From Candidatus Bathyarchaeia archaeon (GTDB lineage: Archaea > Thermoproteota > Bathyarchaeia > 40CM-2-53-6): a DNA stretch of 64,000 nucleotides. A model generated the notes under the pieces. The model made no database searches and was not told where the DNA came from. It saw only the letters and a list, made by a program, of their open reading frames with translations. Positions 32,911 to 48,132 of this stretch are shown in pieces (position 1 is the first letter of the stretch; each line of letters begins with the position of its first letter). Made by a program: the position numbers and the translations under genes. The stretch is taken from positions 192,001 to 256,000 of the forward strand of contig JBEKFP010000003.1 of assembly GCA_050013255.1 (NCBI GenBank). Direction: 5' to 3'.

Positions 32911-33058
32911 CACGCACACACTTTACTACCGTGCTGGTCTTGGCTAAGTGTCCCCTAACAACCGCGCTCTCATTTTGGTTTCATTAGCCCTATTTCCACG
33001 TAGAACTGGGAATCTTAGATGGTGAGGCTCTACTTAATTCGTATACTGACTTGTTTCT

Positions 33059-33922
33059 TTGACGGTGAAACTGGTGAAAACCGCCTACTATTATTTCGCG
33101 GTAGAACCGCTGATTGAAAAATACGAAGATGTTCCCGAAGTAAAGCCTCTGATATCGATACCTGTCAAGACCAAGTCGAAAACATTCGAAGTCTCATTCT
33201 TTGCCCTGGGCAACCAACTGCACATGCTTAGGATAGCAGTTCCGAACCTGGAAGAGGATAGGATTTCCGAAGAGGATTCGAAGGTCGTTCAGACGCTAAA
33301 AGAACATGTTCTCTCGGTGTTACGCATAACTTACGACCATGGTGTTAGTTTGTTTCCAATTCATTGGTGGAGCTTCGCTGAGGAAGGAAAGGAATACAGG
33401 GCGGGCATTTCAATACGGGAGCAAATAGAGGAAGCATTCCGCATCAATGCGGGAAACATACGGAACGTTTTCGTGAGTACCTTTCCGCTGAGATATCATA
33501 TTGCGCTCATATCTGATTCACAGGACAGGAGAATCCCATTACAGTACCGATACCTCTCACTTTACAAAATACTCGAACTCGAATTCAAGAAAGGTGGCAG
33601 ATGGAATCGAATACGTCTCAACGAATTCCTGTCCAGATTTGAAAAGGAGTTCCAGAAACTTCACAGTGAGAAAATCGAGCTGCGGAATTATCTGCATTCC
33701 TTGCGAGACAAATGTGCACACGTTAGGACTGGAAAGGACATTATTGGCGTCACTCAGCTAAGCGGCAAAGATATCGAAGAGGTTACCAAATTCTTACCTT
33801 TCATGGCAGAGTTGTGCTCAACACTCCTAAACGAGAAATACAAAGACAAAGGATTCTCTATCGTAAAAGGACAACAGTATTCCGAGTTCTTAGCGAAAGG
33901 GCAGAACGTACCCATTAACTAA
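33059..33922 (+). CDS. Putative HEPN-domain protein (ApeA/MauJ-like)
   Basis: YLSLYKILE and RxxxxH (RDKCAH). Confidence 0.65.
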   Translation: MTVKLVKTAYYYFAVEPLIEKYEDVPEVKPLISIPVKTKSKTFEVSFFALGNQLHMLRIAVPNLEEDRISEEDSKVVQTLKEHVLSVLRITYDHGVSLFPIHWWSFAEEGKEYRAGISIREQIEEAFRINAGNIRNVFVSTFPLRYHIALISDSQDRRIPLQYRYLSLYKILELEFKKGGRWNRIRLNEFLSRFEKEFQKLHSEKIELRNYLHSLRDKCAHVRTGKDIIGVTQLSGKDIEEVTKFLPFMAELCSTLLNEKYKDKGFSIVKGQQYSEFLAKGQNVPIN

Positions 33923-34065
33923 GCTTACCAACGGAGTCATGGTTGAGAAGGCTTTTCGTGTATGATTTTGTAATTTCATGATTTTTTCTACGTGTGGTTG
34001 GTTGGTCGTGGTTGGTCATGGTAGTGGTTGTGGAGCGTAGCAAGGGCGAGCGTAGCGAGGAGGGT

Positions 34066-34079
34066 GGTTTAGTGGTGCG
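34066..34079 (+). repeat. Junction H (GGTTTAGTGGTGCG)
   Basis: GAGGAGGGT|GGTTTAGTGGTGCG|CACACACACA. Confidence 0.8.
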
Positions 34080-34197
34080 CACACACACAGCAAAAAAATG
34101 ACACACAATTACTAATCTGAGATAATCAATACAGCTATCAATTCTCAATATGCTTTCATTGATGCTCAGAAAGCAGGCTACAAGTAACACTGGTTTT

Positions 34198-35112
34198 CTA
34201 TCGTTCGTCTGTCTTAATTCCCGGGAGTTGAACAAGGACTACGCCCACAATGACTAAGAGTATTCCCAGAGTCATAACATAGGTGACGCGCTCATCGAGA
34301 AAGATCCATGCAAGCACAGCAACCTGCACGAGCATACTGTTCTGAATTACTGACAGCTCGTACGCATGGATAGAGCGGAGGACGTGGTTCCAGAGAAGAA
34401 AGGCCAAGGCCGTATTGACAACGCCGAGCCACAATATTATCAGCAGACCATTCAGAGAAATCGGCCTAAGCCCATCGAATACTGCCGCAAGCAGCACAAG
34501 GCCCGCTGTCCCAATTCCCATAGTCAACGTTGTCAGTTTCAATGACCCAAAGGAGTCAACCCTCTGAATTTTCCTGACTATTATCATGTAAATAGCCCAT
34601 GAGAGACTCGAAACGATAACGGCTAGGATTCCGATTTGCTGTCCCGCGCCCGCCAGTCTCTCCGAGAAGAACGCGTAAGCCCCCAGGAGAGCCACAGGCA
34701 AGCCCACCAATTGAAGGCGCGACACTTTTTCTCTGAGAAGCAGGACCCCCAGCACGAGAACGAAGACCGGCGTAAAGTTGAGCACGAAGGTAGACGTAAC
34801 TGCTGGGAGATAGAACAAGCCGACGAACTGGAGACCCTGAGCAAGAGTGTAGCCACATATCCCTGCCGCGACGAGGAGTACTTTCCCATTCGCCACAGTC
34901 GTGCTCTTTCGACCACTCTTCTCAGTCCCCACACGTGCGACATACAACATTCCCAAAACGACGAACGCAAGCGTGTAGCGCTCAGCAGCGAAAAGAAAAA
35001 GAGGAATTTCAAGCAAACCAAACTTGATTAGAACATACGACGATGACCACAAGAAAGTTACCAGAATCGCTTCAGCGTATGCTAGTAGTGGATTCGATTT
35101 CGTGAACGGCAC
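34198..35112 (-). CDS. DMT/EamA family transporter
   Basis: LWSSS....K, 10 TM, NTALAFLLWN. Confidence 0.88.
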   Translation of the reverse strand: MPFTKSNPLLAYAEAILVTFLWSSSYVLIKFGLLEIPLFLFAAERYTLAFVVLGMLYVARVGTEKSGRKSTTVANGKVLLVAAGICGYTLAQGLQFVGLFYLPAVTSTFVLNFTPVFVLVLGVLLLREKVSRLQLVGLPVALLGAYAFFSERLAGAGQQIGILAVIVSSLSWAIYMIIVRKIQRVDSFGSLKLTTLTMGIGTAGLVLLAAVFDGLRPISLNGLLIILWLGVVNTALAFLLWNHVLRSIHAYELSVIQNSMLVQVAVLAWIFLDERVTYVMTLGILLVIVGVVLVQLPGIKTDER

Positions 35113-35229
35113 CGCCAGTCACACACTATCATAATTAATCTTTCATCTTGCTGCATACTATTCAGTTGCTTCTCACGTTCGTTCAAGCCCCCACAAGGTG
35201 CACTGATAACTTATGGAGTTGTGTGTGTG

Positions 35230-35243
35230 ACTGCGCTGGTGCG
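35230..35243 (+). repeat. Junction I (ACTGCGCTGGTGCG)
   Basis: TGTGTGTGTG|ACTGCGCTGGTGCG|CACATATG. Confidence 0.8.
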
Positions 35244-35309
35244 CACATATGAGTCCAGTCCTCGTGGACTCAATATATATTTACAGAAGAGACTCAACTC
35301 TGTGATGCT

Positions 35310-36026
35310 ATGAAGACTAACATAATCGCATACTACAGGAAACATGATCCCTTCTCTAGATATCTAACAACCGACAAGCGAAGGGTGAAACAGATTTATG
35401 GGCTTTACACTTCAAACAAACGCCACTTTGGACGCAGAGTCTTAGATATTGCGTGTGGAGGCGGAGTCTTAGGCTTCATAGTGGAGAGAGAGGGTCGCTC
35501 ATACACTGGCGTTGACGTTAATCCTGACATGATTTCGTCGGCCAGAACTCATGCAAAGGAGGTCGGGTCAAGAAACCGGTTCATCGAAGGAGATGTAACC
35601 CAAATGAAAATCGAAGGAAAATTTGACACCATATGCATTCTGGGCAATGCATTATGTCACTTCTCAACGCACGATTTCTCAAGGATCCTTCAGAACACTG
35701 CCGCATGTAGCGAAAGAGGCGCTTACTTCATAGTAGATTATCGAGATATGGTGCGCCTAATGTTTCACAAAAAGTGGAATATCAAGAAAAGGCTTGTACA
35801 GAAAGAACGGGGAAGAATCAGCACGACAGAGGGTTGTGACACAAGAACCGGGTTCGTTCTAGTAACGACTACAGACCTGCGTGGAAAGAGCGAAGTCGGA
35901 TTCGCTCATGCCATATGGTCGCCATTCATTATCACACCCATCATGAATAATCATGGCTGGTCCATGGTAAAGAGAACATTCTCGAAGAGATTGTCTGAAT
36001 GGCTCGATATCTACCGAAGAACCTAG
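35310..36026 (+). CDS. Class I SAM-dependent methyltransferase
   Basis: VLDIACGGG, GVD, GD, FD. Confidence 0.88.
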   Translation: MKTNIIAYYRKHDPFSRYLTTDKRRVKQIYGLYTSNKRHFGRRVLDIACGGGVLGFIVEREGRSYTGVDVNPDMISSARTHAKEVGSRNRFIEGDVTQMKIEGKFDTICILGNALCHFSTHDFSRILQNTAACSERGAYFIVDYRDMVRLMFHKKWNIKKRLVQKERGRISTTEGCDTRTGFVLVTTTDLRGKSEVGFAHAIWSPFIITPIMNNHGWSMVKRTFSKRLSEWLDIYRRT

Positions 36027-36064
36027 TTGCCAAAAACGATGAACCGATATTTCTCGTGTGTGTG

Positions 36065-36078
36065 GGTATGCTGGTGCG
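36065..36078 (+). repeat. Junction J: GGTATGCTGGTGCG (putative TSD, copy 2 of 3)
   Basis: GTGTGTGTG|GGTATGCTGGTGCG|CCGCCCCCGCCGCCGCC. Confidence 0.85.
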
Positions 36079-36278
36079 CCGCCCCCGCCGCCGCCTAGAT
36101 TAACTTTGTGGTTGGAACGACGGTAGGAACCGAACGACGACGGTAGGATTGGAGACGACGGAACGAGTACGACGACGCTAATACGAACGACGGTAGGAAC
36201 GACGACGACACGCCGATGTTCTATGTTTTATAGGAATTGAAACACGTGGAAGCAACAGCACAGCTAAACTCGCACAAA

Positions 36279-36791
36279 CTAAAATCGCAGAAGGCTTGCA
36301 AGGTATTGAGCAACGGCGAATAGGAAGACGAGAACTACGCCTAGCAAGAATGTCAATAGCGCTTGATAGATTCTTGACTGAGATTGCGCCTTGAGTTTCT
36401 TCGGGAGACCCGTCACATCTGCGACTAGGTACGCTAGGAGGTAGAGAGGCGGGAATATCAAAAAGAGCGACGCCGCCTTGAGATGTGCGAGAGCGACAGT
36501 CAAAAATATCGTCACCACATATCCTCCTAATTCTATCGTCATGAGAAACAGCCCCGCTCTAAATATCCAGCAACTTGATGAAACGTTGCCCCTCTCACCC
36601 TTTGGGGGATAATCCAATGTTTCCCACAACAACAAAACTGCGAGTGCAAAGCTTGTAATTGAAACCAGCTGAACAATTATTTGGTTACCGAAGTGGGCGA
36701 GGACTGCTGAAATGCCGCCGAATACACCAAACGCTTCTAGAAGTTTATCATTAGCTTCAACAAAATCTCGCAGGCTCTTCCTTTGCTCCAA
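36279..36791 (-). CDS. Hypothetical membrane protein
   Basis: 170 aa, about 5 hydrophobic segments. Confidence 0.6.
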   Translation of the reverse strand: MEQRKSLRDFVEANDKLLEAFGVFGGISAVLAHFGNQIIVQLVSITSFALAVLLLWETLDYPPKGERGNVSSSCWIFRAGLFLMTIELGGYVVTIFLTVALAHLKAASLFLIFPPLYLLAYLVADVTGLPKKLKAQSQSRIYQALLTFLLGVVLVFLFAVAQYLASLLRF

Positions 36792-36907
36792 ATCTTGACG
36801 CTCACCAACCTTCGGGATTCGTTATCCACATCGAAGGGATTGCACGAAGGAACTACTTAATCCGTATTCTTGGCCCTTTATTCTTATCATGCCAGTATGC
36901 GTTGACG

Positions 36908-37642
36908 TTAGAAATGTTGTTCCGATGGTTCGGGGCAAAGATGGTGGAGCAATTGGACAACGGTCTTGATCGCTCGTCTGCAATCAGATTCGATGACGCT
37001 TTTTTCTGTGACTTTTCCGTTCGCAATCATTGGCATTAGGCCTCTGGTCAAGGCCTTCGCATACTTGTCATAATTGCCTGTGTGCAAGGAAGGATTTCTA
37101 ATTCTTGAAAGCCAGAGCAAGTCGATTTTCTCTCTCTTCGTCAACGTCCCTTCGCTGGCGAGCCTTCTGACCAACCGCCAATACTGCGCTTCGGAGCCTT
37201 TCGCTTTACGCCGGATAACAGATTCGACTACAGCTTGACACATGATAATTGTTGCGTAGTGTGCGCCGTTCATATAGCACGCCCCAACCTCCGGCAAAAG
37301 CAGACTCGTGAGAACGGGGATCCTCCACATTTCGTGAGGAAATTGTTTTCTCAGCCAGCGTGCTCTTCTCTCTTGCTCCAATTCAAGTAACCGATCCCGT
37401 TCATCAAGATCGTCGGCATAGGGCCGCAATACTCCAGAAAAAGCGAAGGCGTCTGCCCCAGTCCAGTCATAAGGCCCGCTTGCCCATTCTTCAATGATCT
37501 GTTTTCGGCGGTGGAGCAGCGTCTTCGTTCTATTCTTCAATGACCGTTGAACCTCTACACAGGATACCTGTAGAGTTTGTTTTGGCGGATTACGTAGATT
37601 CCTAGATTTTCCTTGGGTATGTGTACCTTGAAGAAGTACCAT
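36908..37642 (-). CDS. Putative HEPN (DUF4145-like) protein
   Basis: CY..G..YATIIMC.AVVE and RxxxxH (RNPSLH); true start probably internal. Confidence 0.6.
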   Translation of the reverse strand: MVLLQGTHTQGKSRNLRNPPKQTLQVSCVEVQRSLKNRTKTLLHRRKQIIEEWASGPYDWTGADAFAFSGVLRPYADDLDERDRLLELEQERRARWLRKQFPHEMWRIPVLTSLLLPEVGACYMNGAHYATIIMCQAVVESVIRRKAKGSEAQYWRLVRRLASEGTLTKREKIDLLWLSRIRNPSLHTGNYDKYAKALTRGLMPMIANGKVTEKSVIESDCRRAIKTVVQLLHHLCPEPSEQHF

Positions 37643-38013
37643 ATGCGCTGTCTTTCACGCCGTGTCCAGGGCGACGCCTTGAAAACTTCCACACGCTTGT
37701 AATCCCACTTACCCGTTTTCCTGTTCCTTGTTGTTCCGAAGCATAACTCTCTGTAAATGAATCCTTGTTCTCTCAGCTTCCTTTTGACCAAGGCGAGTTT
37801 TTCCCTCAGCCTCTTTGAGACGGGTAAATCTTCAGTTCTAGTTGTCTTATTGTATTTGAGGTACCATCTCTTCAGATCGGCTTCTTCGAAGACTGACTTC
37901 GCAACCCGCCGTATCGTGCCGTGTTCGTTTCTAAGCACTAGAACCCTGATAGTACGGCCTTTCACGTGGCGCTCTTCATATTGTAAGCGCCAGACCTTGA
38001 GCTTAGGAATCAA
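37555..38013 (-). CDS. Hypothetical basic protein
   Basis: 152-aa Arg/Lys-rich ORF co-oriented with the HNH operon. Confidence 0.5.
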   Translation of the reverse strand: MIPKLKVWRLQYEERHVKGRTIRVLVLRNEHGTIRRVAKSVFEEADLKRWYLKYNKTTRTEDLPVSKRLREKLALVKRKLREQGFIYRELCFGTTRNRKTGKWDYKRVEVFKASPWTRRERQRIWYFFKVHIPKENLGIYVIRQNKLYRYPV

Positions 38014-38066
38014 CGCTCAAAACCCGTAAACACAGACGACGATAAGGGCGCTGAGAACCGTCTATG

Positions 38067-38387
38067 CTAACTGAGTTTCCTACGTGGATGCGATAAACGA
38101 TATTTCCTGTCGCTCTCACGTCTTTCCGCACGATGTGCTTCCCGATATTTTCTATCACTCTCTCGTCTTTCGGCACGGTGTGCTTCTCTATATTTCCTAT
38201 CACTCTCACGTCCTTCTTTACGGCGCGCTTTTCGGTACTTCTCGTCCCTCTCATGTATTTCCGTGCGGTGTCCGTCCCGATATTTTCTATGTTCCTCAAG
38301 TCTTTCCGCACGGTGCGTTTCTCTATATCTCCTATCGTTTTCTCTTGCCTTTTCAGGATGAAGAGACCGCCAACTTCTCCTTTTCAT
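38067..38387 (-). CDS. Charged repeat protein (six 15-aa repeats, RESDRKYREAHRAER-like)
   Basis: 45-bp periodicity in the DNA; GGAG RBS; follows HNH gene. Confidence 0.55.
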   Translation of the reverse strand: MKRRSWRSLHPEKARENDRRYRETHRAERLEEHRKYRDGHRTEIHERDEKYRKARRKEGRESDRKYREAHRAERRESDRKYREAHRAERRESDRKYRLSHPRRKLS

Positions 38388-38399
38388 CTAATGCCACGT

Positions 38400-38897
38400 T
38401 CAGTGTTTTTCCTCGTGTTTCCAAGTTCTATACTTCAATATGGAAATAATCGCACCTCGGCTGACGCCGTATTCTTTGGCGAGGGTCCCAAAGCCGACTC
38501 CAGCTTTATGGTCTCTCGCATATCTCGCCCGAATTTCGACAACTTGATTCCGAGTTAGCTTATGTGCGGGCGAGTCTTCTCCTCTGAGACCTCTGGAACG
38601 GCCCTTTCTCGCCCTGTCTTCGGCGTTCTCCTTGAGTGTTCCGACAGACAAGTGCGCCGGATTTACGCAAGCACGGTTATCGCAATGATGCAAAACACAC
38701 TTTCCTTCGGGTATGCGTCCATATTCGAATTCCCAAGCAACTCGGTGAGCCATAGGCGTATGTCCGCGGTAATGGAATCGGCCATATCCATCTTGGTTCT
38801 TGACACCCATCCAAATCCAACAACCATTATCCTCTTTGCGGACTTTTTCCCAAAAGCGCTCCTTGACAGATGATACCCTCCTTGGCATGATTCTCAC
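38400..38897 (-). CDS. HNH endonuclease with C-terminal HTH
   Basis: RFWEKV, CWIW.G, GYG, AHRVAW, LHHCDNRACVNPAHL..GT..EN..D. Confidence 0.9.
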   Translation of the reverse strand: MRIMPRRVSSVKERFWEKVRKEDNGCWIWMGVKNQDGYGRFHYRGHTPMAHRVAWEFEYGRIPEGKCVLHHCDNRACVNPAHLSVGTLKENAEDRARKGRSRGLRGEDSPAHKLTRNQVVEIRARYARDHKAGVGFGTLAKEYGVSRGAIISILKYRTWKHEEKH

Positions 38898-38946
38898 ATG
38901 TCCAACATTGCGTCTCTAATCATGCTAGGAACAACTTGCCAATCAA

Positions 38947-39081
38947 TCAATTCTTCAGCCAGAGTTTGATAGCTTCCTCTAACGCTTTGATTACTGCACC
39001 TTTCTGACCGCCATACTTCTCCACGGCTTTCAGCCTGAACTTCTTCTCTAGCTCTTTGTCAATCTTGCCATACACTACCAA
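38947..39081 (-). CDS. Ribbon-helix-helix (CopG-like) regulator, 44 aa (not in ORF track)
   Basis: TTG start; VVYGKIDKELEKKFRLKAVEKYGGQKGAVIKALEEAIKLWLKN; divergent from cas1. Confidence 0.7.
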   Translation of the reverse strand: MVVYGKIDKELEKKFRLKAVEKYGGQKGAVIKALEEAIKLWLKN

Positions 39082-39097
39082 ACCGTAATCCGCTCAA

Positions 39098-39152
39098 CTT
39101 GCTATCTAGATAACAAGCCTTATACGTTTTAGCTTGTGGTCTAGATAACTTG
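39098..39152. promoter_or_regulatory. Putative operator pair in the RHH/cas1 divergent promoter
   Basis: TCTAGATAAC at 39105-39114 and 39140-39149; the first lies in the near-palindrome CTTGCTATCTAGATAACAAG; TTATA between the copies. Confidence 0.5.
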
Positions 39153-39178
39153 CGATATAGCATTTCGAGGTTTGAGGC

Positions 39179-40393
39179 ATGAACCCGTTACATCTCGGCG
39201 GTTTCGGCGTCGAAATTCAAGCAAGCAACCCAAAGCCACACGCCGAACTCATGATTACGAATGGACGGCGAAGCGAAAGCCTACCAGAACGCTACCTCTT
39301 TCTGCCAAGAAAAATAGTATACGATTCAATCATACTCGAAAACTGTACTGGACATGTTTCACTTTCAGCCTTACGCTGGTTGAGCAAACACAACATTCCA
39401 ATCTTCTTCTTAAACTTCGACGGCTCAACCATCAGCAGCATTCTACCACCAACACCAGTTAAAGCGGATTTACGTGCCGCACAATTTCAAGCCGCCAACG
39501 ACCCTGAAAAGAAGTTCAGAATCGCCCACGCGCTGGTAGAAGCGAAGATCGCTAGGAGCATACAGGTTCTAGACTGGTTAGCTCAGCGTTACGACATACA
39601 AAGAGAAGTACAAGTCACAAACGGCGAAGCTGTCAAGCTAGGCGAAGCCTCCACGGTCAATCAACTACGCACCGTTGAGGGCAGAACGGCGCTTCGATAT
39701 TGGGAAGCATTCCGCAAAACTCTGCCTGAATCTCTACATTTCGAGGGACGCATGACCACAAGCCACAACAACAACGCCTCCGACCCATTCAACGCGGCGC
39801 TGAACTATGGCTATGGATACCTGAAAATTATGTGCAGAACGGCGATTAACTCTGTGGGACTAGAGCCCGCCGTAGGCTTCCTGCATGAACTCAGCTCCAC
39901 TCAAACAGCAGAAAGCCTAGTCTATGACTTGGAGGAACCATTCAGATGGCTCATAGACCTCTGTGTGATTCAAGCGTTCGAAACCGGCAGCCTAGGCTTG
40001 GCAGACTTCGCTTTCACCAAAGACAATTACGAATATCGAATTGAGTGGGAAGGTAAGACACGGCTCCGTCAATTGCTGACGGAGACATTCAATTCAAGAG
40101 TAAGGTATGGCGGGCAAGTGTTGAAGTGGGACACCGTAATCGAACAGAAAACCTTGGAACTCAGCCGATACTTGACGGGAAAGGCGCCCACGTTGGACTT
40201 CAATGAACCCGCACCGACGTTAGAAAGACAGGATAACCGAGAAGTCAGAGAAAACATTCTGGCCCTAACACAGTCTGAGGCTAGGCAACGTGGGATTGGG
40301 AAGAGTACGCTTCACTATCTACACAAGAACGCACATGAGCGCAGTTCTTTTAGACTCTATGAGCCTGTAAGACGAAAGCTGTTGGGCGGTTAA
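39179..40393 (+). CDS. cas1: Solo Cas1, casposase-like (family-2-type C-terminal HTH)
   Basis: VEG...RYW, DPFNAALNYGYGYL, GLEPAVGFLHE, SLVYDLEEPFR (catalytic E/H/E appear intact); C-terminal GIGKSTLHYL; no cas2, other cas gene or CRISPR array in the window. Confidence 0.93.
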   Translation: MNPLHLGGFGVEIQASNPKPHAELMITNGRRSESLPERYLFLPRKIVYDSIILENCTGHVSLSALRWLSKHNIPIFFLNFDGSTISSILPPTPVKADLRAAQFQAANDPEKKFRIAHALVEAKIARSIQVLDWLAQRYDIQREVQVTNGEAVKLGEASTVNQLRTVEGRTALRYWEAFRKTLPESLHFEGRMTTSHNNNASDPFNAALNYGYGYLKIMCRTAINSVGLEPAVGFLHELSSTQTAESLVYDLEEPFRWLIDLCVIQAFETGSLGLADFAFTKDNYEYRIEWEGKTRLRQLLTETFNSRVRYGGQVLKWDTVIEQKTLELSRYLTGKAPTLDFNEPAPTLERQDNREVRENILALTQSEARQRGIGKSTLHYLHKNAHERSSFRLYEPVRRKLLGG

Positions 40394-40394
40394 T

Positions 40395-41159
40395 TTGAAA
40401 GAAGTTTTCCTAAGCCACGCGCACGAAGACAAGGCACTAGCCGGAAAAGTAAAAGAGATTCTCGAAGCGAACGGGGTAAGTGCGTTCTTGGCTCATATGG
40501 ACATGGAAGTCTCGGAAGAGTGGAGAACTGAAATATCCCGACACCTTGAGACAAGTTCAGCCCTAATCGCTATCGTGACGTCGAATTTCGGCAAATCAGC
40601 CTGGGCAAACCAAGAAGTTGGAATAGCCTTCGAGAAGAAATTACCGCTAATTCCGTTGATGTTCGACGGAAGCGCGGTTCTGAAGGGTGTGATCGAAATG
40701 TATCAGGGAATCCTTGTTTCCGAAAATAATCTAGTAGATGTGGTAAAGAGCACTATTCCGACAATAAACAAGGGAATCCCTTCAACCGAGAGAAAATTCT
40801 ACGATGCCCTAGCAGGCATCCTAAATCGTTTGATACTAAGGTGGCAGACTTACAAGAGCCACCTATCAAACATAAAATGGACTCAAGAAGCTATTGAAGA
40901 GATTAAGAAGAATCTTCGCAGCGATAGAGAGGAACTTCTCAATTTGGTCTCCAATGCGCCAGAAATCGATTTCGGCGTCAAAAATCAGACCACAGTTATC
41001 ATGAGTCAAATTGACGTATTCGCACTCTTCAAAATCAATTTCAACAAGCCCTATGCTGAGACTTACGGCGAATTCCAAGAATTAGAGCATAAAGGAGAAC
41101 AGGTATCTTACACTGCTCAAGCCTTACGCGGTTGGTTGCAAACCGAGAAACTCTCCTAG
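40395..41159 (+). CDS. TIR domain protein
   Basis: VFLSHAHED, S.WANQEVG.A (catalytic Glu), LIPL. Confidence 0.85.
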   Translation: MKEVFLSHAHEDKALAGKVKEILEANGVSAFLAHMDMEVSEEWRTEISRHLETSSALIAIVTSNFGKSAWANQEVGIAFEKKLPLIPLMFDGSAVLKGVIEMYQGILVSENNLVDVVKSTIPTINKGIPSTERKFYDALAGILNRLILRWQTYKSHLSNIKWTQEAIEEIKKNLRSDREELLNLVSNAPEIDFGVKNQTTVIMSQIDVFALFKINFNKPYAETYGEFQELEHKGEQVSYTAQALRGWLQTEKLS

Positions 41160-41361
41160 CTAGAATGACTCTGAAGTCGTTTCTCACTTTCGACACGCGC
41201 GATTCTTGTCTCAGTGGAGGCGTGGTATAGCTGATGCGCCAACAACCTTTCAGGATTTACTCGAACGTGAAAGAGAAAATGAGTAATCCGCCCCTTGGGC
41301 AGCTGTGATTGAATCGTATACTATACATAAGCCTAGGCTAGTCTAACGTTTAGCAGAAATG

Positions 41362-41868
41362 TCATAATGCAACCTTCTTCTTCGGCTTACTATGCGGTTT
41401 GTATGGCGGTGGGGCTCCAGCATTTCGGCGAGCTTTTCGCATGTTCCACTGTCTGAATCTTCTCTTTCGGGCCTGAATGATCTTGTTCCTAAACTCGTTA
41501 CTGTACCAACGTAACAACAGATCAGAGGGCGGCGCTTCTTCACCGTAAGGCTTTGCGCTTAGTTCATGGGCGGCGGCTATTTTCGCATAAATTTCTTCAT
41601 CAAGAGGAAAATATGCGTAGTGCACTCCACCATGATACATGATTTTCAACTGCCGACTAGAGAGGTTGTACGTTAAATCGAAATGCGGGGTTTGCGACAG
41701 TCTACTGAGCGTAACGCAATCTCTATTTTTCTTTCTTCTCTTGTCCAACCCTAGTGTTTCGACTTCTCCCGCAATCTTGAAAATTGGTTTACCTGTTTCG
41801 TTGTCTAATTCAATTTTCACTTGCTGTTTGCGTGAACCTTTGAGGCCGGTAGCCCTGATGTAACCCAT
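41362..41868 (-). CDS. Hypothetical protein
   Basis: 168-aa ORF, basic C-terminus. Confidence 0.5.
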   Translation of the reverse strand: MGYIRATGLKGSRKQQVKIELDNETGKPIFKIAGEVETLGLDKRRKKNRDCVTLSRLSQTPHFDLTYNLSSRQLKIMYHGGVHYAYFPLDEEIYAKIAAAHELSAKPYGEEAPPSDLLLRWYSNEFRNKIIQARKRRFRQWNMRKARRNAGAPPPYKPHSKPKKKVAL

Positions 41869-42349
41869 GGACTACGCTCTCTTGCACTTCTTGAGTCTGA
41901 ACTCGAAAGTGTACTTCGACGGGTTCCTGTCGATTTTCTTGGCTATGATCTCGGGAACTAGAGTACGGAATTCAATGAGACGGCTTTCACGGCATGTCAG
42001 CGTTGACGTCTCCGCTTGCTGAAGAAGAAGAACAGCCGTGTTACAACTGAAGAAGAAGAAGAATTATGGCGAAATGAAGAAGAAACTTCTGTATTCAACT
42101 CTAATCGCCTTTTCCTCTTATTTGCGGAGCTCTTTACCTGAAAGAAGCTCGAAATAACCTTAGTTTTGAACTGTATAAAAAGTCTACTGTCCCGCAGTCA
42201 GACGACAATACAACACTCGGTGATCGCAAACCTGAGGAAGCAGACCGAGAATAGTCTTGACCCAGCTCCCTCAGGGGAAATGGCGATTCCAGGTCTATTA
42301 TTGTCTGCGAGTGGTAAATAAATCTACTTATTTTTGAGTAATAGGTTCG

Positions 42350-42730
42350 GTGCCACCCCTTCTTGAGCACGTATTAAGGGGAGCGATTTACCCAAAAATG
42401 AGTAATTCTAAAATACCTGCGAGCGGGATACGATGGCTGAGTATCCCTATGACCGTTCCCCAGGTCGTTCCATCAGACCTACTCTCAAGGAAGGAGCGCG
42501 AAGCACCCACAGACACTAAGCAGAGGATAAGCTTCAGGGAACTTGCGGAGCGTCGGATCATCACTAAAGGCCTCAACGGAGCGGCCGCCTGGTTGAGGGC
42601 TAAGGTAGGAGTTTTCCCAATCGATATCGAGATGCAGCAGTGTGGCGATGTCTACGAAATGGTTGTAAAAGTAACATATCGCCCTTTACCACCAATGCCT
42701 GAGGTCGTGTATGAACGTCAGGAATCATAA
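42350..42730 (+). CDS. Hypothetical protein
   Basis: 126-aa ORF; start uncertain. Confidence 0.4.
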   Translation: MPPLLEHVLRGAIYPKMSNSKIPASGIRWLSIPMTVPQVVPSDLLSRKEREAPTDTKQRISFRELAERRIITKGLNGAAAWLRAKVGVFPIDIEMQQCGDVYEMVVKVTYRPLPPMPEVVYERQES

Positions 42731-42913
42731 CAACAGAACGAAGAACGACTCGGCGCCATAGTTATGTGAATCCGATGATATCAAATCGAGGCTCAATTCT
42801 AACCAACGCTGGCAACAAGTCGATGAGTTCTCTCTCACTGTTCCAAAACGATTCGGCCCAACTCTCATTAGTTCCCCATCTACAATTCTAAAGAGGCCTT
42901 ACAGGCGGTTCCC

Positions 42914-43399
42914 ATGTCAGTGAACGTCACGGAATCGAGTCTTGATCTCAACACACTCTTGAGCAAACTCGGGTATCAACCCGACCAAATAGGTTCGTTA
43001 TTGGGTGCTGACGTCCTGATGTTCCCGAAAGACTTGGAATCTGCCGAGTCATCGTTTGATGACAAATCAGTATCCATTAAGAAGACCATTGAGAAGCAGC
43101 TTCGAATTGAGGTGCTGACCAAGCAGGGCGCTAAGTCTCATTACGAAGCTCAAAGAGCCGCAGACATCCTTGTCCCTGCATTAGTCTTCTTAGGGGTGCA
43201 AACTTTTGATATCGGTAAGGGAATAATCACCAGCTGGGTTTATGATAGGTATCTCCAGCTACGCAACCGAGGTCTGACACCAAGTGTAGCATTGAAGTTC
43301 GTTGTGATTGATAAGAAGAAAGGGATTAGGAAGGAAGTAAGCTACGAAGGACCGGCCGAGCAATTGCAAGACACTTTGAAGAATCTCAAACTGGATTGA
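42914..43399 (+). CDS. Hypothetical protein
   Basis: 161 aa, 4-nt overlap with next ORF. Confidence 0.6.
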   Translation: MSVNVTESSLDLNTLLSKLGYQPDQIGSLLGADVLMFPKDLESAESSFDDKSVSIKKTIEKQLRIEVLTKQGAKSHYEAQRAADILVPALVFLGVQTFDIGKGIITSWVYDRYLQLRNRGLTPSVALKFVVIDKKKGIRKEVSYEGPAEQLQDTLKNLKLD

Positions 43400-44193
43400 A
43401 GTTGCCTAGACTCTCGTCTCTAAGACCCGTTCGACCGCGAACCATCACCGTGCTTTCACCGGAGCAGAGGGAAATTCTTGAGAAAGGATTGTCTAACGAG
43501 GAAAATGGACACCTTGGTAAAGCTGCTAGTCTGTTCCAGTCCCTTTATGAACAGATGCAGAGTGCCAACTCTGAAGTCTCGCAAGACTCAGCGTGTATGA
43601 AAGCGAACGCTGACTTAGTATTAGCCAGACTGGAAATCACCCGCAATCGAGACGAAGCGGAGAAACTGTTCAGAAGCACGATATCGGCTCTAGAAGTTGC
43701 GCTAAAGATCGATCCGTACTGGGCGGATTATTTCAATTTACGAGGGAAAATCGTGGCCTACCTGCATACTGATTTCGGCTGCAAGATAGTTCGTAATAGA
43801 GGAGTTTGGGAAATCAAATGTATCGATGTATCTAACGCACTACGAATCCCAGGGATAAGTAGAAGCGAGACTTTTGATCTTGAGTGCTCAATCTGTAAGA
43901 AGGACCCAATGTTTTGTCCGCATGTTTCGGGGGAAGTCTACGATGGCCGCCTAGCTCTAGGCATAGTAAGACATTTGGAAATCAAAGAACTTTCAATAAT
44001 TACGCCGCCACATGTTCCCGAAGAGCGTACAATCGGAATATGGCCTCGACCCTTAACCGACGGCGATATCAGGAAGCTCTATTCGGAGAAGACTGCAAGG
44101 CAGATAATAGATTCAGGAGTGATTCGTTGCAAGGATCTCGTTAGAATAATTCGTAAGAACAATCTGGGCGGTGTGGAATGGGTGCAACATTGA
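43396..44193 (+). CDS. Hypothetical protein: helical/TPR-like N-terminus + CSIC...CPH zinc motif
   Basis: ECSICKKDPMFCPHVSGEVYDG. Confidence 0.6.
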   Translation: MKLPRLSSLRPVRPRTITVLSPEQREILEKGLSNEENGHLGKAASLFQSLYEQMQSANSEVSQDSACMKANADLVLARLEITRNRDEAEKLFRSTISALEVALKIDPYWADYFNLRGKIVAYLHTDFGCKIVRNRGVWEIKCIDVSNALRIPGISRSETFDLECSICKKDPMFCPHVSGEVYDGRLALGIVRHLEIKELSIITPPHVPEERTIGIWPRPLTDGDIRKLYSEKTARQIIDSGVIRCKDLVRIIRKNNLGGVEWVQH

Positions 44194-44293
44194 CGAGCAA
44201 ACAACAACTCAAGGATTGCAGAGTTAGGCATCTACCGGAAGAAAGCCCACGCTCTTGGCACTGTCTAAATGCAATCCTCTCGCAATGTACCAA

Positions 44294-44878
44294 TCAGCTT
44301 CTTCTGAGTTTCTTATCATATGTGAAATGTTTCTGAATCAGCGCTCTTGTCAGAAACTCTATGTCCTCATCTTGAGGCAGGAAATCTGATGTTGCTTCGA
44401 CTATCTTCCCTATGTTTCCCCTTTTGTAAAGGGCCATTCCCAGAGACATGTGACGGCCAAAGATTCTCGCCAAGAGTTCTTTCTTCCCCCAGAGTAACTG
44501 TCTAAATTCCTCTATCTTTCGGTCGTCTGGGATATTTTGATGAAACCCTAGAATCAGGTTCGTCCGTTGAACTCCATTCTTCAGATAAAGAAGGGCCTCG
44601 CCAATTCCTTTGTAGAACGCATCCCAGCCCAATGACTTACTTCGTTCATCAAACTTGATCAATTTCATTTCATAGCCGTTCAGTCGGTATTGGTTCTGTG
44701 AAATCTTGTAGAATTCCAGGGCGTCAATGTCTGGATTAATCCTCCTTCCTGCTATGGCCGAGACCTTGGGGTACGCTCCATATGGCAAGACAGACTTTAG
44801 CAATTCGTCTTCGGAAACAAATCGATCATACGTCATGGCGTGTGTCATTCGAGAGGCCTTGTGATTGGGCTGGTCCAT
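44294..44878 (-). CDS. PD-(D/E)XK nuclease-like protein
   Basis: PDID...GYEMK...GIGEALLY. Confidence 0.65.
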   Translation of the reverse strand: MDQPNHKASRMTHAMTYDRFVSEDELLKSVLPYGAYPKVSAIAGRRINPDIDALEFYKISQNQYRLNGYEMKLIKFDERSKSLGWDAFYKGIGEALLYLKNGVQRTNLILGFHQNIPDDRKIEEFRQLLWGKKELLARIFGRHMSLGMALYKRGNIGKIVEATSDFLPQDEDIEFLTRALIQKHFTYDKKLRRS

Positions 44879-45121
44879 AGGTTTAGTCTACCTGACCAGC
44901 GGATTATTCTTTCTGATTTTGATGTTCTGGTAGTGTTATGTCCGAGCTTAACTACTCACGCGGATGGTTCATCATGTGGTCCTTCATGTTTTATGATTCA
45001 TAAGAAATCAGGTTCTTATCCTACTCCTGCCGTTCCTACTCCTACCGTACCGAACAGGTTCCTGCCGTCATTCCTACCCTTCGTGTTGTCACAATCCTAA
45101 TATTAGCGGCGGCGGGGGCGG

Positions 45122-45135
45122 CGCACCAACGATAC
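45122..45135 (-). repeat. Junction K (inverted 14-mer GTATCGTTGGTGCG)
   Basis: + strand GCGGCGGCGGGGGCGG|CGCACCAACGATAC|CACACACAC. Confidence 0.85.
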
Positions 45136-45160
45136 CACACACACTTTTCAAACGAACGCA

Positions 45161-45192
45161 GTCCGATGGTCCGGCGACCGCATCAGTGATAC
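45161..45192 (-). repeat. Junction K2: degenerate tRNA-Gly 3'-end mimic + 14-mer
   Basis: + strand GTCCGATGGT-CCGGCGACCGCATCA (13/15 to tRNA CCGGCGGCCGCACCA), then GTGATAC|TACAGAC. Confidence 0.55.
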
Positions 45193-45211
45193 TACAGACT
45201 AAGCGCGACTT

Positions 45212-46675
45212 CTATGTTGCTAGGCCACACTGCTTCCTGAGTTTCTCCATTAGTTCTCGGTATCGAGGGTCGGCCCTTGCCTTCGCGCAGAGAGGTGAGT
45301 ACATCACGAACAGGGAAATTATCGCATGCTCTTCAAGGGCCTTGTTCACGTACTGGAAGTATGAGTCGAGGTCTCCGAGCGCGTGGTAGACAAACCCCAT
45401 GTAGTTGAAGCCTATTGGACCCACCTTGGCATTCTCAATCTTCTTGATTGCGAGGAGTGCCGTATCTCTGTCGCCTTCCATGGCCGCGACGACCCCTCCC
45501 ATCCAAGCGACCCTAGAATTGGTGGGATCGAGCTTCTCAAACTTCGCAAGGAGCTCCTTAGCCTTCTCAAGTTCCCCTTTGGCTAGGTAGTACTCCGTCA
45601 TTCCCCTGTAGGTCCACGCAGGGGCAATCTGCTCGTACTTCTTCCAGTGCTCCAACGCCTCCTGCTCCCTCCCCGTATAGAGATACGCTAGCCCCACAAG
45701 CCAGGTGAACCGCGGCCTCACGGGGTCTAGGCGGTATGCTGTCTCGATCTGCCTAACCATCTCCCCCTGGTTTCCCTTGATTCCCTCCACCTCAAACAGT
45801 ATCCAGTAGGCGTCTGGGAGACTCGGGTTAAGCTCCAAAGCCTTCCTCGCCTCCGCCTCCGAACCTAAGACATCGTCCTCATCGAAGAGCAAAACAGAAA
45901 GCACCGCGTGGGCCTCCGCAAGGTTCGAGTCGAGATTAAGGGCACGTTCCAATAATTGCCTCGCAGTCGAATGAGAGACATCAAACGGTTCCTTTCCGAC
46001 GTTGGAAAGATAACTGTGGCACTCTGCCGCGCCGACGTATGCCCTCGCGAACTTGGGATCCAGTTCGATGGCTTTCTCAAAGAGGCTGATAGCCCGCTCT
46101 GTTGTATCTATGCTTACTTCCCGTAGTAGTTCTCTGCCTTGCAAGAAGTACGTGTACGCCTCAGTGTTCTCGGTAGGCTTCTTCTGTAGGGTTCGCTTCT
46201 CAGAGTCGAGTAGCTGGGTCTTGAGCTCTCCCGCCACCTTCTCAGCTATCTCACTCTGAACGGCGAAGATATCGTCTAAGTTCTTGTCATAGTGGGAGGA
46301 CCACACGTGTTCTTCCGTTCCCGCGTTGATTAGCTGAACCGTGACCCTGACCCGGTTACCTGCCTTCCTTACACTGCCTTCGACCACCGACCCGACGCTG
46401 AGTTCCTTTGCGATTTCGGAGACATTCTTCTCCTTCTTCTTGTAATTCATCACTGACGTCCGAGCTATGACCTTCAAACTCTTCACCTGAGAAAGCCTGT
46501 CAATCAACTCCTCCGTCATGCCGTCCGCGAAGTACTCGTCGTTAGGGTCGGGGCTCATGTTCTTCATGGGCAAAACGGCAATCCGGAGCTTGTCTAGCGT
46601 CTGCTGTGCCGTGGAGAACGCGGGGGGAATGAAGCTCTTCGACCGGGCGAGGTCGGCTGGCTGCAAATGATTCAC
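45212..46675 (-). CDS. TolB-N-like + TPR repeat protein (type seen with class III cyclases; no cyclase domain)
   Basis: IAVLP..NMS.DP..EYFADGMTEELI, EGSVRKAGNRVRVTVQLI, multiple A.ELDP TPRs. Confidence 0.85.
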   Translation of the reverse strand: MNHLQPADLARSKSFIPPAFSTAQQTLDKLRIAVLPMKNMSPDPNDEYFADGMTEELIDRLSQVKSLKVIARTSVMNYKKKEKNVSEIAKELSVGSVVEGSVRKAGNRVRVTVQLINAGTEEHVWSSHYDKNLDDIFAVQSEIAEKVAGELKTQLLDSEKRTLQKKPTENTEAYTYFLQGRELLREVSIDTTERAISLFEKAIELDPKFARAYVGAAECHSYLSNVGKEPFDVSHSTARQLLERALNLDSNLAEAHAVLSVLLFDEDDVLGSEAEARKALELNPSLPDAYWILFEVEGIKGNQGEMVRQIETAYRLDPVRPRFTWLVGLAYLYTGREQEALEHWKKYEQIAPAWTYRGMTEYYLAKGELEKAKELLAKFEKLDPTNSRVAWMGGVVAAMEGDRDTALLAIKKIENAKVGPIGFNYMGFVYHALGDLDSYFQYVNKALEEHAIISLFVMYSPLCAKARADPRYRELMEKLRKQCGLAT

Positions 46676-47043
46676 GATTACCTGACTGCGTATCTAGCTA
46701 AGCTTGCCGAGCCGGTTGTTATAGAGCCTTTCCTCAACTCGCACGCGAGAGACTAGGTGGTTCAGCAGTCACTTCACATTCGTATTGTGACGAATCATCG
46801 TTCCGTATTCTCTCGTTCTTTAGGTCTTGTTTCTTGTAGGAAATCGTATGGTATTATTGGTCAGCATGTTTGTATTGGCATTGTCGTACGTGACGTCCAA
46901 GCGTCATGTTTTATGATTCATAGAACATCAGGCTACCGCCACTAAGAGAATGTTGTGCGAGCGAAGCGAGCACCAAGCTAACCAAGTAAGCGAGCGAAGT
47001 GATCTTCAACAGGTTCCAACTTCGGGCGGCGGCGGCGGGGGCG

Positions 47044-47075
47044 GGTATGCTGGTGCGGGCGAGCGGATTTGAACT
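47044..47075 (+). repeat. Junction L: GGTATGCTGGTGCG (putative TSD, copy 3 of 3) + T-loop mimic
   Basis: GGCGGCGGCGGGGGCG|GGTATGCTGGTGCG|GGCGAGCGGA-TTTGAACT. Confidence 0.85.
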
Positions 47076-47086
47076 CTCGTTTGGGG

Positions 47087-47113
47087 GAGAGCTTGGTGCG
47101 GCCGCCGGGATTC
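47087..47113 (+). repeat. Junction M: 27-bp copy of tRNA-Gly 3' end plus flank (att-like)
   Basis: GAGAGCTTGGTGCGGCCGCCGGGATTC vs GAGAGTTTGGTGCGGCCGCCGGGATTC at 49300-49326 (26/27). Confidence 0.9.
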
Positions 47114-47124
47114 AGGTCAGCCTT

Positions 47125-48066
47125 TCAGGGCTCGGGATAGGTGTATGACGGGTAGATCCTTAGCGGTGTTCCAGGTTTTATGACGGCTTGGGCTTCAGCG
47201 TTTAGCAGGTAGCGCCCAGCAGGATCAGCGCTGCCCGCCTCCGCAAAAAGCTTGACAACGAAAGGTTTCGATTCGGCCCGCCGGTAGAAAATCTGAGCCT
47301 CATTCGGGCGTGTTCTAACGTACCTCCTCCAAAGCTGCTCGATGGGCTCAGTTCGCGCAAATGACCTGTCCATGAATTCGAAGAACCTTGCTAACTCCGA
47401 TCTTCGGGGAAACCGACCGTAATGCTGCGAAAGTTCCTCATATGCTCCAAGGAAGTATTCCTGTAATGAGGCAAACCGCCGGTCCCTTAGGTACCCTTTG
47501 AAGAGCTCGATAAACTCTTGGAGCAGTCGATTTATGCGTTTATCGACTTGCCCGTGATTCGGTTGCGCTACGGGTAACTTGTCGGGCACGATTTCCCTTA
47601 CCAAACCAAGTTTTCCGTTACCGGAAATTGCTAGGCCAGCTTTGCTTACCGTTCCATGAATCTCGCGTATCGCCTCGACCATGAGATGGTTCTCATACAT
47701 CTCGATTTCGAGAGCATGATCCTGCCTGAAGATTTCCGCCATTCTTTCCCACACAACCTCGTAACGTTTTCTCCGCATATCCAAACCAATTCCGGGGCGA
47801 TCTCTCAACAGCCCCGCCTTTCGGAGGTCCGAAAGTTGCAGACTCACGGCGAACTTCGATTTACCCGTAAACGCTGATATTTCAGAAGGCGAGTTCGTAC
47901 CCTTTGCCACTGCGACGAAGAGCTCACTCAGAGCTTGAGAACGAAGCGCCTTCCGGACGCGTCTAATCTCGCCGCGCAACGGGTCGCCGGAATCAACTTT
48001 AACCTCCATTGCAACGCGCCTTCCCCACAGCTGCCGTGCAAGAACCGTTGGTTTTGTTTTTGGCAT
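47125..48066 (-). CDS. ArsR-like winged-HTH protein
   Basis: SPSEIS..TGKSKFAVS.QL..L.KAGL. Confidence 0.7.
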   Translation of the reverse strand: MPKTKPTVLARQLWGRRVAMEVKVDSGDPLRGEIRRVRKALRSQALSELFVAVAKGTNSPSEISAFTGKSKFAVSLQLSDLRKAGLLRDRPGIGLDMRRKRYEVVWERMAEIFRQDHALEIEMYENHLMVEAIREIHGTVSKAGLAISGNGKLGLVREIVPDKLPVAQPNHGQVDKRINRLLQEFIELFKGYLRDRRFASLQEYFLGAYEELSQHYGRFPRRSELARFFEFMDRSFARTEPIEQLWRRYVRTRPNEAQIFYRRAESKPFVVKLFAEAGSADPAGRYLLNAEAQAVIKPGTPLRIYPSYTYPEP

Positions 48067-48132
48067 GTGGGAAATTAACTAGCAAACGGTATAAGTAGTT
48101 AATTGACCCCTTAACTATCTCGTGATGGAAAA

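Follow-up and report, generated by a model that had tools for sequence, protein, structure and literature searches.

Casposons, as reportedly defined by Krupovic et al. in 2014, combine a Cas1 casposase, terminal inverted repeats (TIRs), a target site duplication (TSD) and a family B DNA polymerase (PolB). The locus described here lies in a 64,000-nucleotide stretch of Bathyarchaeia DNA (the window) and raises the question whether a Cas1 transposon can exist without such a polymerase, as a stand-alone intact Cas1 and TIRs are present and the family B polymerase is missing. A sequence-only reading had regarded the locus as a PolB-independent Cas1 transposon or a deletion derivative. The analysis below upholds the former, in that the element is a true casposon without its own DNA polymerase, and speaks against a deletion derivative or simple decay.

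Casposase, cargo and boundaries of the element

The cas1 gene (39179..40393, plus strand) encodes a 404-aa Cas1 homologue with a C-terminal helix-turn-helix (HTH) (PF01867, E 1e-52). In an alignment of 23 casposases the residues E167, H236, D250 and E253 are invariant. The closest PDB structure is 6OPM, the family-2 casposase of M. mazei (E 8.4e-77), with an alignment spanning residues 4-395 of 404 including the HTH tail, so that the intact catalytic residues and the HTH predicted from the DNA letters were both borne out. In the PDB search CRISPR Cas1 proteins reached only E 1e-22 or weaker. As the 6OPM match is full length and that to CRISPR Cas1 far weaker, the protein is, judged by its sequence, a casposase and not a CRISPR Cas1. 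NCBIfam holds no casposase-specific model, and all its subtype models scored below their own cut-off for this protein. The genome contains only two Cas1 genes, and neither cas2 or other cas neighbours nor a CRISPR-like array were found at either locus among the annotated ORFs and in an array check. With dN/dS values of 0.05-0.16 in sampled casposase pairs, codon comparison shows purifying selection on the casposase, which is intact. The closest metagenomic Cas1 homologues share 80% and 75% identity; those in the range of 80-73% lie on contigs of up to 219 kb. A metagenome scan for related loci returned a single 1-kb locus.

Upstream of cas1 four genes are encoded on the minus strand: a 170-aa ORF without family match (36279..36791), a 244-aa ORF (36908..37642), for which an Atlas structure gives a mere lead towards a DUF4145/Abi_C/HEPN-like helical protein, an HNH endonuclease of the HNH_3, homing-endonuclease type (38400..38897; PF13392, E 2e-15) and a 44-aa ORF divergent from cas1 (38947..39081). 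The HNH gene is element-specific, with no homologue among 80 related loci. It had been predicted together with a ribbon-helix-helix (RHH) gene; HNH and the divergent arrangement were recovered, while Pfam, a PDB sequence search and Foldseek returned no significant RHH match for the 44-aa ORF. Its model shows an N-terminal extension and two helices (pLDDT 83), which leaves an RHH regulator plausible but unconfirmed. Directly downstream of cas1 a TIR-domain (ThsB-like) protein is encoded (40395..41159, plus strand), which is probably defence cargo. It is followed by five cargo ORFs of unknown function on mixed strands (41362..44878), of 168 aa (-), 126 aa (+), 161 aa (+), 265 aa (+) and 194 aa (-), none with polymerase-like features. 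The 126-aa ORF is common to the element of the congener G275, and an Atlas structure search with the 265-aa ORF yielded no usable lead.

The 16-bp TIR noted initially (36079-36094 / 45106-45121) is perfect and part of an exact inverted match of 22 nt (36073-36094 / 45106-45127; 0 expected in 100 shuffles), which widens to 55 nt at 80% identity (36056-36110 / 45090-45144). The left TIR, L (CCGCCCCCGCCGCCGC..., 36079..36110, plus strand), and its cognate partner R1 (45090..45121, minus strand; subterminal box 44984-45012) enclose subterminal 18-nt repeats ACGACGGTAGGAACGACG (5.3 copies, 36117..36209, plus strand) with inverted counterparts at 45019-45048. The repeats are probably casposase-binding sites. 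L is preceded by a 14-bp TSD copy GGTATGCTGGTGCG (36065..36078, plus strand; 5'-CGCACCAGCATACC on the tRNA-sense strand), a 14-mer that recurs identically at 47044-47057 and 30447-30460. The GTGTGTGTG immediately before it is the end of a methyltransferase cassette.

On the right side the situation is more complicated. R1 is followed by a 14-mer in inverted orientation (GTATCGTTGGTGCG when read on the minus strand) and GTGTGTGTG, together the end of a TPR-gene cassette (45122..45144, minus strand), and R1 therefore adjoins a landing site belonging to that cassette. The cassette is 5'-truncated and carries a TPR-repeat protein gene (45212..46675, minus strand); positions 45122-46597 are 78.6% identical to C1:1352968-1354441. 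Behind it a second right end, R2, was found (CGCCCCCGCCGCCGCCGCCC on the minus strand, 47024..47043), whose subterminal box (46904-46932) is 90% identical to that of R1. R2 abuts the right-hand 14-bp TSD copy GGTATGCTGGTGCG (47044..47057, plus strand), and then a tRNA-3'-end-like leader GGCGAGCGGATTTGAAC... and a tRNA-end copy (47058..47115, minus strand). This stretch, in which the final ~27 nt of a real tRNA (49310-49401) recur almost exactly, anchors the entire island.

A perfect 14-bp direct repeat bounds L to R2 (36079-47043), whereas the 14-mers bounding L to R1 (36079-45121) are inverted. Because the direct duplication pairs the left end with R2, the locus is composite, having two right ends, and not a simple 9-kb unit. 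Two other readings of the ends were dropped. The outer GTGTGTGTG plus 14-mer is not the element's own TIR, because relatives show the 14-mer as a direct duplication and GTGTGTGTG as part of the adjacent unit; a simple inversion is ruled out by R1 and R2 being direct repeats. The cognate pair L/R1 may be nested in, or recombined with, an older unit, the right end of which would be R2 with its matching direct duplication. In the most likely history, a second copy would have inserted where the TPR cassette, in inverted orientation, has its landing site, and the two left ends would then have recombined. No second identical copy of the element is found in the genome, nor is a transposition of it observed.

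Absence of PolB from the element and its clade

Within the element, cas1 is the longest reading frame. The Pfam models PF00136 and PF03175 are unsuitable for confirming the absence of PolB: on the ~900-aa PolBs encoded beside Cas1 in other archaea they gave mostly no or sub-threshold matches, and phmmer with the host's own PolBs likewise missed casposon PolBs. As Pfam barely detects these polymerases, a dedicated profile HMM was built from 26 casposon PolBs; Exo I-III and the motifs A, B and C are visible in a 15-sequence alignment of them. Neither a casposon-type PolB nor a remnant was found with it in the element or the 100%-complete genome (six-frame search, filters off), where its sole match was a chromosomal PolB (E 1.7e-5), one of three chromosomal family B polymerases. 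ORF lengths and the purpose-built profile thus agree with the absence first noted from the ORF list. In a survey of 401 genomes of the class, the genome at hand (G000) gave no match, and the matches in six genomes were all partial, consisting of fragments, some of them cut by contig ends.

A Cas1 tree of 66 sequences was calculated by quick search, without named reference casposases of families 1-5, and with unverified short Cas1 proteins as root, one of them placed inside the ingroup. The window Cas1 falls within a clade of 19 Bathyarchaeia casposases (SH-aLRT 100, stem length 0.63) sharing 52-76% Cas1 identity. This clade is nested among HTH-bearing, PolB-linked casposases; its sister L065 and most outgroups are PolB-linked. 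With the casposon-PolB profile, linkage to PolB was detected at none of the 19 clade loci, ten of which have at least 8 kb on both sides and nine short flanks, and the 18 other members all lack PolB like the window element. Cas1 is the only gene common to the whole clade; no neighbouring gene is conserved.

Absence of PolB is a property of the whole clade, which is a polymerase-free lineage and not a one-off deletion; the clade members without PolB, the purifying selection, the clean TIR/TSD units and the nesting all argue for this. Three features suggest a family-2-derived origin: the match to 6OPM, the HTH tail and the rule for target choice described below. The C-terminal HTH of family-2 casposases is present (6OPM alignment through residue 395; region according to PMC6977970), but a conserved set of HNH and HTH proteins beside cas1/polB is lacking, the HNH gene found here having no counterpart elsewhere in the clade.

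Relatives, target sites and neighbouring cassettes

The nearest homologue, in G275 (76% Cas1 identity), forms a clean TIR/TSD unit of 7,144 bp. Other clean PolB-less units with TIRs and an identical 14-bp TSD measure 8,671 bp, 9,406 bp and 16,283 bp; in an apparent unit of ~4 kb the flanking 14-mers differ at three positions. The duplications are 14 bp long and begin with 5'-CGCA where a tRNA-like sequence ends; on the tRNA-sense strand the 14-mers read CGCACCA... after a tRNA-like leader. This matches the rule known for the M. mazei family-2 casposase, with a 14-15-bp TSD at a tRNA gene 3' end and a 5'-CGCA motif (PMC6977970). The 19.3-kb island holding the element is missing from two congeners, G275 and G281, giving an empty site, and element locations vary between congeners. 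Such elements occur in 35 of the 401 class genomes; a single genome can hold as many as three complete copies, besides numerous fragments.

The element had also been proposed as the helper that mobilises the neighbouring cassettes. These cassettes end in CACAC.../...GTGTG. TIRs of this type belong to the second casposase lineage of the genome (the C1 element), and most clade members with definable ends have them too, whereas the window casposase and its sister have CCGCC-type TIRs, of which the genome contains only four. The sole feature common to the element and the neighbouring cassettes is the target site. Since the cassette ends match the other casposase lineage, the helper claim is unsupported.

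Proposed mode of mobility and comparison with known casposons

We consider it probable, at roughly 0.72, that the locus represents a casposon without its own DNA polymerase, belonging to a Bathyarchaeia-wide lineage that arose from family-2-like, PolB-carrying casposons. The casposase would be the only gene that the lineage conserves, the remaining genes (here HNH, the TIR-domain protein and unknowns) serving as exchangeable cargo. Movement may rely on the casposase alone, by excision and subsequent integration at the 14-mer beside a tRNA-like leader, whereupon host enzymes would close the gaps and thereby create the target duplication. Such movement would be cut-and-paste, or else the elements would be copied passively as part of the chromosome, in either case without self-synthesis. 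For the cut-and-paste step we argue by analogy with another organism, as precise excision and mobilisation were shown for the M. mazei mini-casposon (PMC10359463).

Copying during transposition could instead be carried out in trans by a host PolB or the polymerase of another replicon, which would make the elements replication-dependent, although not self-synthesizing. The three chromosomal family B polymerases and the multiple copies per genome, which imply that copy number can rise, fit this idea. A casposon helper polymerase is excluded, however, because G000 has no casposon PolB and the class shows only partial matches, in six genomes; moreover, the host PolBs lie on other contigs or at a distance, unlinked to the elements, and the two PolB neighbours of elements are chromosomal orthologues. 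We regard this explanation as unlikely. Similarly improbable is a domestication of the Cas1 genes for a function of the host or of a defence island, with transposition abandoned and Cas1 paired with a variable downstream effector (a TIR domain in the present element and AIPR in the C1 one). Purifying selection is compatible with a host function, what lies downstream of cas1 often resembles a defence gene and the genome has no identical second copy. Against it stand the units bounded by TIRs and perfect 14-bp duplications, the differing positions and empty sites among congeners, the many decayed fragments typical of transposon turnover and the lack of a conserved neighbour gene.

That the element is an ordinary family-2 casposon which recently lost polB and is now an immobile relic is largely refuted and very improbable. 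Casposon-PolB relics in a few Bathyarchaeia genomes and a 60-aa fragment resembling the PolB C-terminus 7 kb upstream of one clade member's Cas1 do indicate that the PolB-less state arose through loss. The loss is nevertheless old and shared, since all 19 clade members lack PolB despite their divergence; their casposases are conserved, several in intact TIR/TSD units, and the element holds no PolB remnant. A further reading goes beyond the casposon without polymerase and is offered tentatively, at less than even odds: the PolB-free Cas1 integrase lineage might be the autonomous engine of the Bathyarchaeia repeat-gene-repeat arrays, repeatedly inserting itself and enzyme-less cassettes at the 14-bp repeat beside a tRNA-mimic leader.

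The lineage most resembles family 2 (M. mazei MetMaz-C1 and the tRNA-Leu casposons, 6OPM; AciBoo-C1). Both have N-terminal, catalytic and HTH domains, TIRs, a 14-bp duplication with 5'-CGCA at a tRNA(-like) 3' end serving as leader and tandem pile-ups at one site, and the window copy also has HNH beside cas1. Unlike family 2, the window clade lacks the family B polymerase throughout, its HNH and small DNA-binding genes are not conserved, its elements go down to about 4-7 kb and its targets are, besides real tRNA genes, often tRNA-mimic pads on neighbouring cassettes.

PolB-less casposons have already been proposed as 'family 5' from hot springs, which mostly lack PolB and are read by the authors as non-self-replicative transposons (Salgado et al. 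2022, PMC9755687), and the window lineage is a variant and not the first of its kind. Both have a solo Cas1 with intact catalytic residues, a mostly absent polymerase and highly variable gene surroundings. Family 5 casposases, however, lack the C-terminal HTH and branch beside subtype I-A CRISPR Cas1 and a Cas1-solo outgroup (PMC9755687), whereas the window clade has the HTH, is family-2-like and nested among PolB-linked casposases, and is backed by clean TIR/TSD borders as well as an empty site. The M. mazei mini-casposon likewise is small, has casposon ends and undergoes excision and integration in vivo, but it was engineered, and its host in the tests, M. mazei, carries the native casposon (PMC10359463); the Bathyarchaeia elements are natural, encode their own casposase and reside in genomes without any casposon PolB.

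Reviews define casposons by an "invariable" or "ubiquitous" pair of Cas1 and family B polymerase, with self-synthesis as the proposed mechanism (PMC6452270, PMC9966878). The polymerase-less lineage qualifies this textbook view of casposons as "self-synthesizing". A large, diversified, selectively maintained, PolB-less family-2-like clade in genomes in which no intact casposon polymerase turned up suggests that casposase and ends suffice as a transposon, which fits the excision-based model from M. mazei. Its members are natural minimal elements, roughly 4 to 9 kb long, whose ends and target (14 bp plus leader) are defined, which makes them useful for biochemistry. The lineage also supplies a plausible step from casposon to CRISPR adaptation, with a Cas1 integrating DNA that it does not replicate itself. 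If these elements indeed drive the repeat-gene-repeat arrays, they would offer a living counterpart to the stage expected immediately before the casposon became a CRISPR adaptation module, in which the integrase was kept, self-replication was lost and serial insertion was directed by leader and repeat.

Identity of the casposase and content of the element

Judged by its sequence, the 404-aa Cas1 of the window (39179-40393, + strand; PF01867, E 1e-52) is a casposase. Among solved structures it is closest to 6OPM, a casposase of Methanosarcina mazei (E 8.4e-77), in an alignment which spans residues 4-395 and includes the C-terminal HTH, while CRISPR Cas1 proteins match at E 1e-22 or weaker. The residues E167, H236, D250 and E253 are invariant in an alignment of 23 casposases, and thus both the intact catalytic residues and the HTH-like tail proposed in the sequence-only reading are borne out. 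The 2.46-Mb genome, in 3 contigs and with a marker-gene completeness of 100%, contains only two Cas1 genes. The second, on contig C1 (C1:1333417-1334640), is 60% identical to the window Cas1 and is flanked by an AIPR gene and DNA-methylase/ATPase genes, with neither cas genes nor a CRISPR array around it. A broken CRISPR locus, considered beforehand as an alternative source of Cas1, is therefore excluded by the 6OPM-type match, the invariant catalytic residues and the lack of cas genes and array at the second copy.

The terminal inverted repeat is real and longer than first described, with a perfect inverted match of 22 nt (36073-36094 / 45106-45127; 0 expected by chance) that reaches 55 nt at 80% (36056-36110 / 45090-45144). 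An HNH_3 endonuclease gene is present at 38400-38897 (-) as claimed. For the RHH gene, a 44-aa ORF divergent from cas1 was found (38947-39081, -), and its structure model, an extended N-terminus followed by two helices, fits a ribbon-helix-helix protein, but searches of Pfam, PDB and Foldseek gave nothing significant. Directly downstream of cas1 lies a gene for a TIR-domain protein (40395-41159, +), homologous (E 6.5e-16) to a protein of a PolB-carrying Nitrosopumilus casposon locus (L105 12042-12776, -); TIR-domain genes may be recurrent casposon cargo. In addition, between a 152-aa ORF and the HNH gene, the element contains a 45-bp tandem repeat (38098-38337; 5 1/3 copies, 69% matches) with which several short ORFs of both strands overlap.

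Search for a casposon polymerase

No ORF of the interval 36079-45121 is longer than Cas1. A PF00136 search of the genome returned three polymerases, all on contig C2. However, this is not a valid test for the absence of PolB, as ORFs of ~900 aa beside Cas1 in Nitrosopumilus, Aenigmarchaeota, Micrarchaeota and Thermoplasmata mostly have no or only sub-threshold Pfam matches. Since Pfam misses most of these polymerases, Cas1-adjacent ORFs were collected for a profile of our own. This yielded 31 mutually homologous ORFs, and the 26 full-length sequences gave a casposon-PolB profile of 898 positions; Exo I-III and the polymerase motifs A, B and C (YCDTDS) are present in a 15-sequence alignment of these ORFs. 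When the complete genome was searched in six frames without any filter, the sole match was a chromosomal PolB, weakly (E 1.7e-5), and nothing was detected in either Cas1 element. A search of 401 genomes of the class with the same alignment gave matches in only six, all partial and some with internal stops or contig-end cuts, and none of them is in the source genome. The element therefore lacks PolB, as had been read from the sequence, no remnant of a casposon-type PolB was found elsewhere in the genome, and supply of such a polymerase in trans is excluded for this genome.

Short or stop-interrupted pieces matching the profile lie at L057 (G095:C3) 2789-3013 (-), G335:C5:279973-280359, G170:C15:31076-32820 and G095:C3:32986-33408, one piece being 7 kb upstream of a casposase of the clade described below. 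Such pieces in a few Bathyarchaeia genomes are likely relics of a polymerase lost by the lineage. The C-terminal HTH of many casposases, including the window copy (residues ~356-402, window 40244-40384) and the C1 copy, weakly matches profile positions ~846-892, with E values from ~1e-5 in loci of relatives to ~1 for the window copy. A related DNA-binding tail may be present at the C-terminus of the casposon polymerases.

A large protein collection contains 849 relatives of the window Cas1 at E <= 1e-20, at least 120 of them at least 58% identical and several labelled Bathyarchaeia. Matches occur in 35 of the 401 class genomes, with up to three full-length copies in some and fragments in many. 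Scanning named genome contigs gave 80 loci. By the casposon-PolB profile, PolB lies beside Cas1 in ~30 non-Bathyarchaeia loci (28 with full-length Cas1) and in one Bathyarchaeota locus, L065 (Cas1 43% identical), and at no locus with a Cas1 at least 52% identical to that of the window. In a maximum likelihood tree of 66 sequences, the window Cas1 is one of 19 Bathyarchaeia casposases that form a clade (SH-aLRT 100, stem 0.63). PolB is absent from all 19 loci, for ten of which the available sequence reaches at least 8 kb to each side, so the closest homologues share the lack of polB. The sister of this clade is the PolB-linked L065, and the group as a whole lies within the PolB-linked casposases. 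Within the clade dN/dS is 0.05-0.16 and the catalytic residues are retained in 18-19 of the 19 members. The only gene common to the elements is cas1; the cargo differs between them (AIPR, methylase, DndB-like, DUF4365, alcohol dehydrogenase, zinc-ribbon proteins). Outside Bathyarchaeia, the full-length casposases L095, L099 and L089 (Nitrosopumilus / Thaumarchaeota) lack a casposon PolB in the 10 kb to either side. They are sporadic polymerase-less copies in otherwise PolB-linked Nitrosopumilus clades, and one of them shares its chromosome with a PolB-bearing copy ~19 kb away.

Target sites, neighbouring cassettes and anatomy of the locus

In G275, the genome with the nearest homologue (76% identity), Cas1 lies in a 7,144-bp unit whose CCGCC-type TIRs are ~50 nt long and which has the same 14-bp direct repeat, GGTCAGCTGGTGCG, on each side, the right copy being followed by tRNA-3'-end-like sequence. 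Three further units, of 8,671 bp, 9,406 bp and 16,283 bp, have CACAC-type TIRs and perfect 14-bp duplications. The largest is the second element of the source genome (L006, G000:C1:1330273-1346555); it carries AIPR, an N6/N4 DNA methylase, a GHKL-type ATPase and a DndB-like protein, and so amounts to a defence island that a casposase moves. An apparent ~4-kb unit in G260 (L051, G260:C8 9075-13132), whose flanking 14-mers differ at three positions, consists of a CACAC end, Cas1, another ~2 kb and a GTGTG end, with a tRNA-like pad after the flanking 14-mer; it is apparently a minimal casposon. On the tRNA-sense strand the 14-mers start 5'-CGCACCA. In M. mazei, the 14-bp duplications made by the family-2 casposase have a conserved 5'-CGCA start at the end of tRNA-Leu, and the enzyme requires ~30 bp of upstream tRNA and its own HTH domain (PMC6977970). 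The target rule is thus the same, as in both cases the duplications start 5'-CGCA next to a tRNA or tRNA-like end.

The window element had also been proposed as the helper of the neighbouring cassettes (29.4-36.06 kb), which is doubtful. The cassettes end in CACAC/GTGTG, as do the C1 element, L050, L051, L054 and L063 of the other casposase lineage, whereas CCGCC-type ends accompany only the window casposase and its sister. The C1 casposase is more likely the cognate helper; cross-mobilisation by the window casposase is possible, because both lineages share the target.

The motif GTGTGTGTG-N6-xTGGTGCG, with ~60 occurrences in the genome, is the junction of one unit's GTGTG end with a 14-mer, followed by the CACAC end of the next unit, a tRNA-like pad or a CCGCC-type casposon end. 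The whole genome has four CCGCC-type ends: L (36079), R1 (45121), R2 (47043) and a solo left end at C1:770467. GGTATGCTGGTGCG precedes L (36065-36078) and recurs after R2 (47044-47057), where a tRNA-like leader comes next. Beyond R1 lie an inverted 14-mer and CACACACAC, together the end of a TPR-gene cassette. In the paralogue of this cassette on C1 (78.6% identity over 1.5 kb), a 14-mer and tRNA-like pad follow, and thus R1 has exactly the position that insertion of a casposon at this cassette's landing site would give it. Outside the GC-rich core L is closer to R1 than to R2, and a 29-nt subterminal box is common to R1 and R2. The locus is therefore composite and not a simple 9-kb unit from 36079 to 45121, R1 having an inverted flanking 14-mer and the 14-mer of L recurring after R2. 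In the history that we favour among several possible ones, the inverted TPR cassette would have been part of an older unit with L-type and R2 ends. Another copy of the casposon would have inserted at the cassette's pad, and the two left ends would then have recombined with loss of the DNA between them.

Window segments 27054-27766 (94% identity) and 47104-49323 (91%) lie ~70 bp apart in G275, with the same adjacency in G281, and therefore 19.3 kb (~27767 to 47100) are an insertion relative to these congeners. The island is anchored by 47087-47115, which repeats almost exactly the final ~27 nt of a real tRNA at 49310-49401 (-), the apparent source of this tRNA-3' fragment 2.2 kb away. This tRNA (Rfam 48 bits; ARAGORN gave no anticodon name) is probably intron-bearing, given its length of ~92 nt, and terminates in CGCACCA, after which comes an unoccupied 14-mer. 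A ~270-bp sequence on the island's left edge (27767-28037) is multicopy both in the genome (C1:262259, C2:477538, C1:668681, C2:83355, C2:426177) and in its congeners, and could be a MITE-like repeat that has nothing to do with the casposon ends.

Polymerase-less casposons

Reviews describe the polymerase as invariably or ubiquitously present in casposons (PMC6452270, PMC9966878), and we found no paper on casposons in Bathyarchaeia. Polymerase-less casposons are partly anticipated in print, as a 2022 study proposed HTH-less 'family 5' casposons, mostly without polymerase, and put them forward as non-self-replicative transposons (PMC9755687). In M. mazei, precise excision and the mobilisation of a mini-casposon have been shown (PMC10359463), which makes movement without a polymerase plausible. 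With no casposon PolB in element or genome, nor in any member of its clade, the proposal of a Cas1 transposon without PolB is supported, and the element is a true casposon that lacks a polymerase and belongs to a family-2-like lineage.
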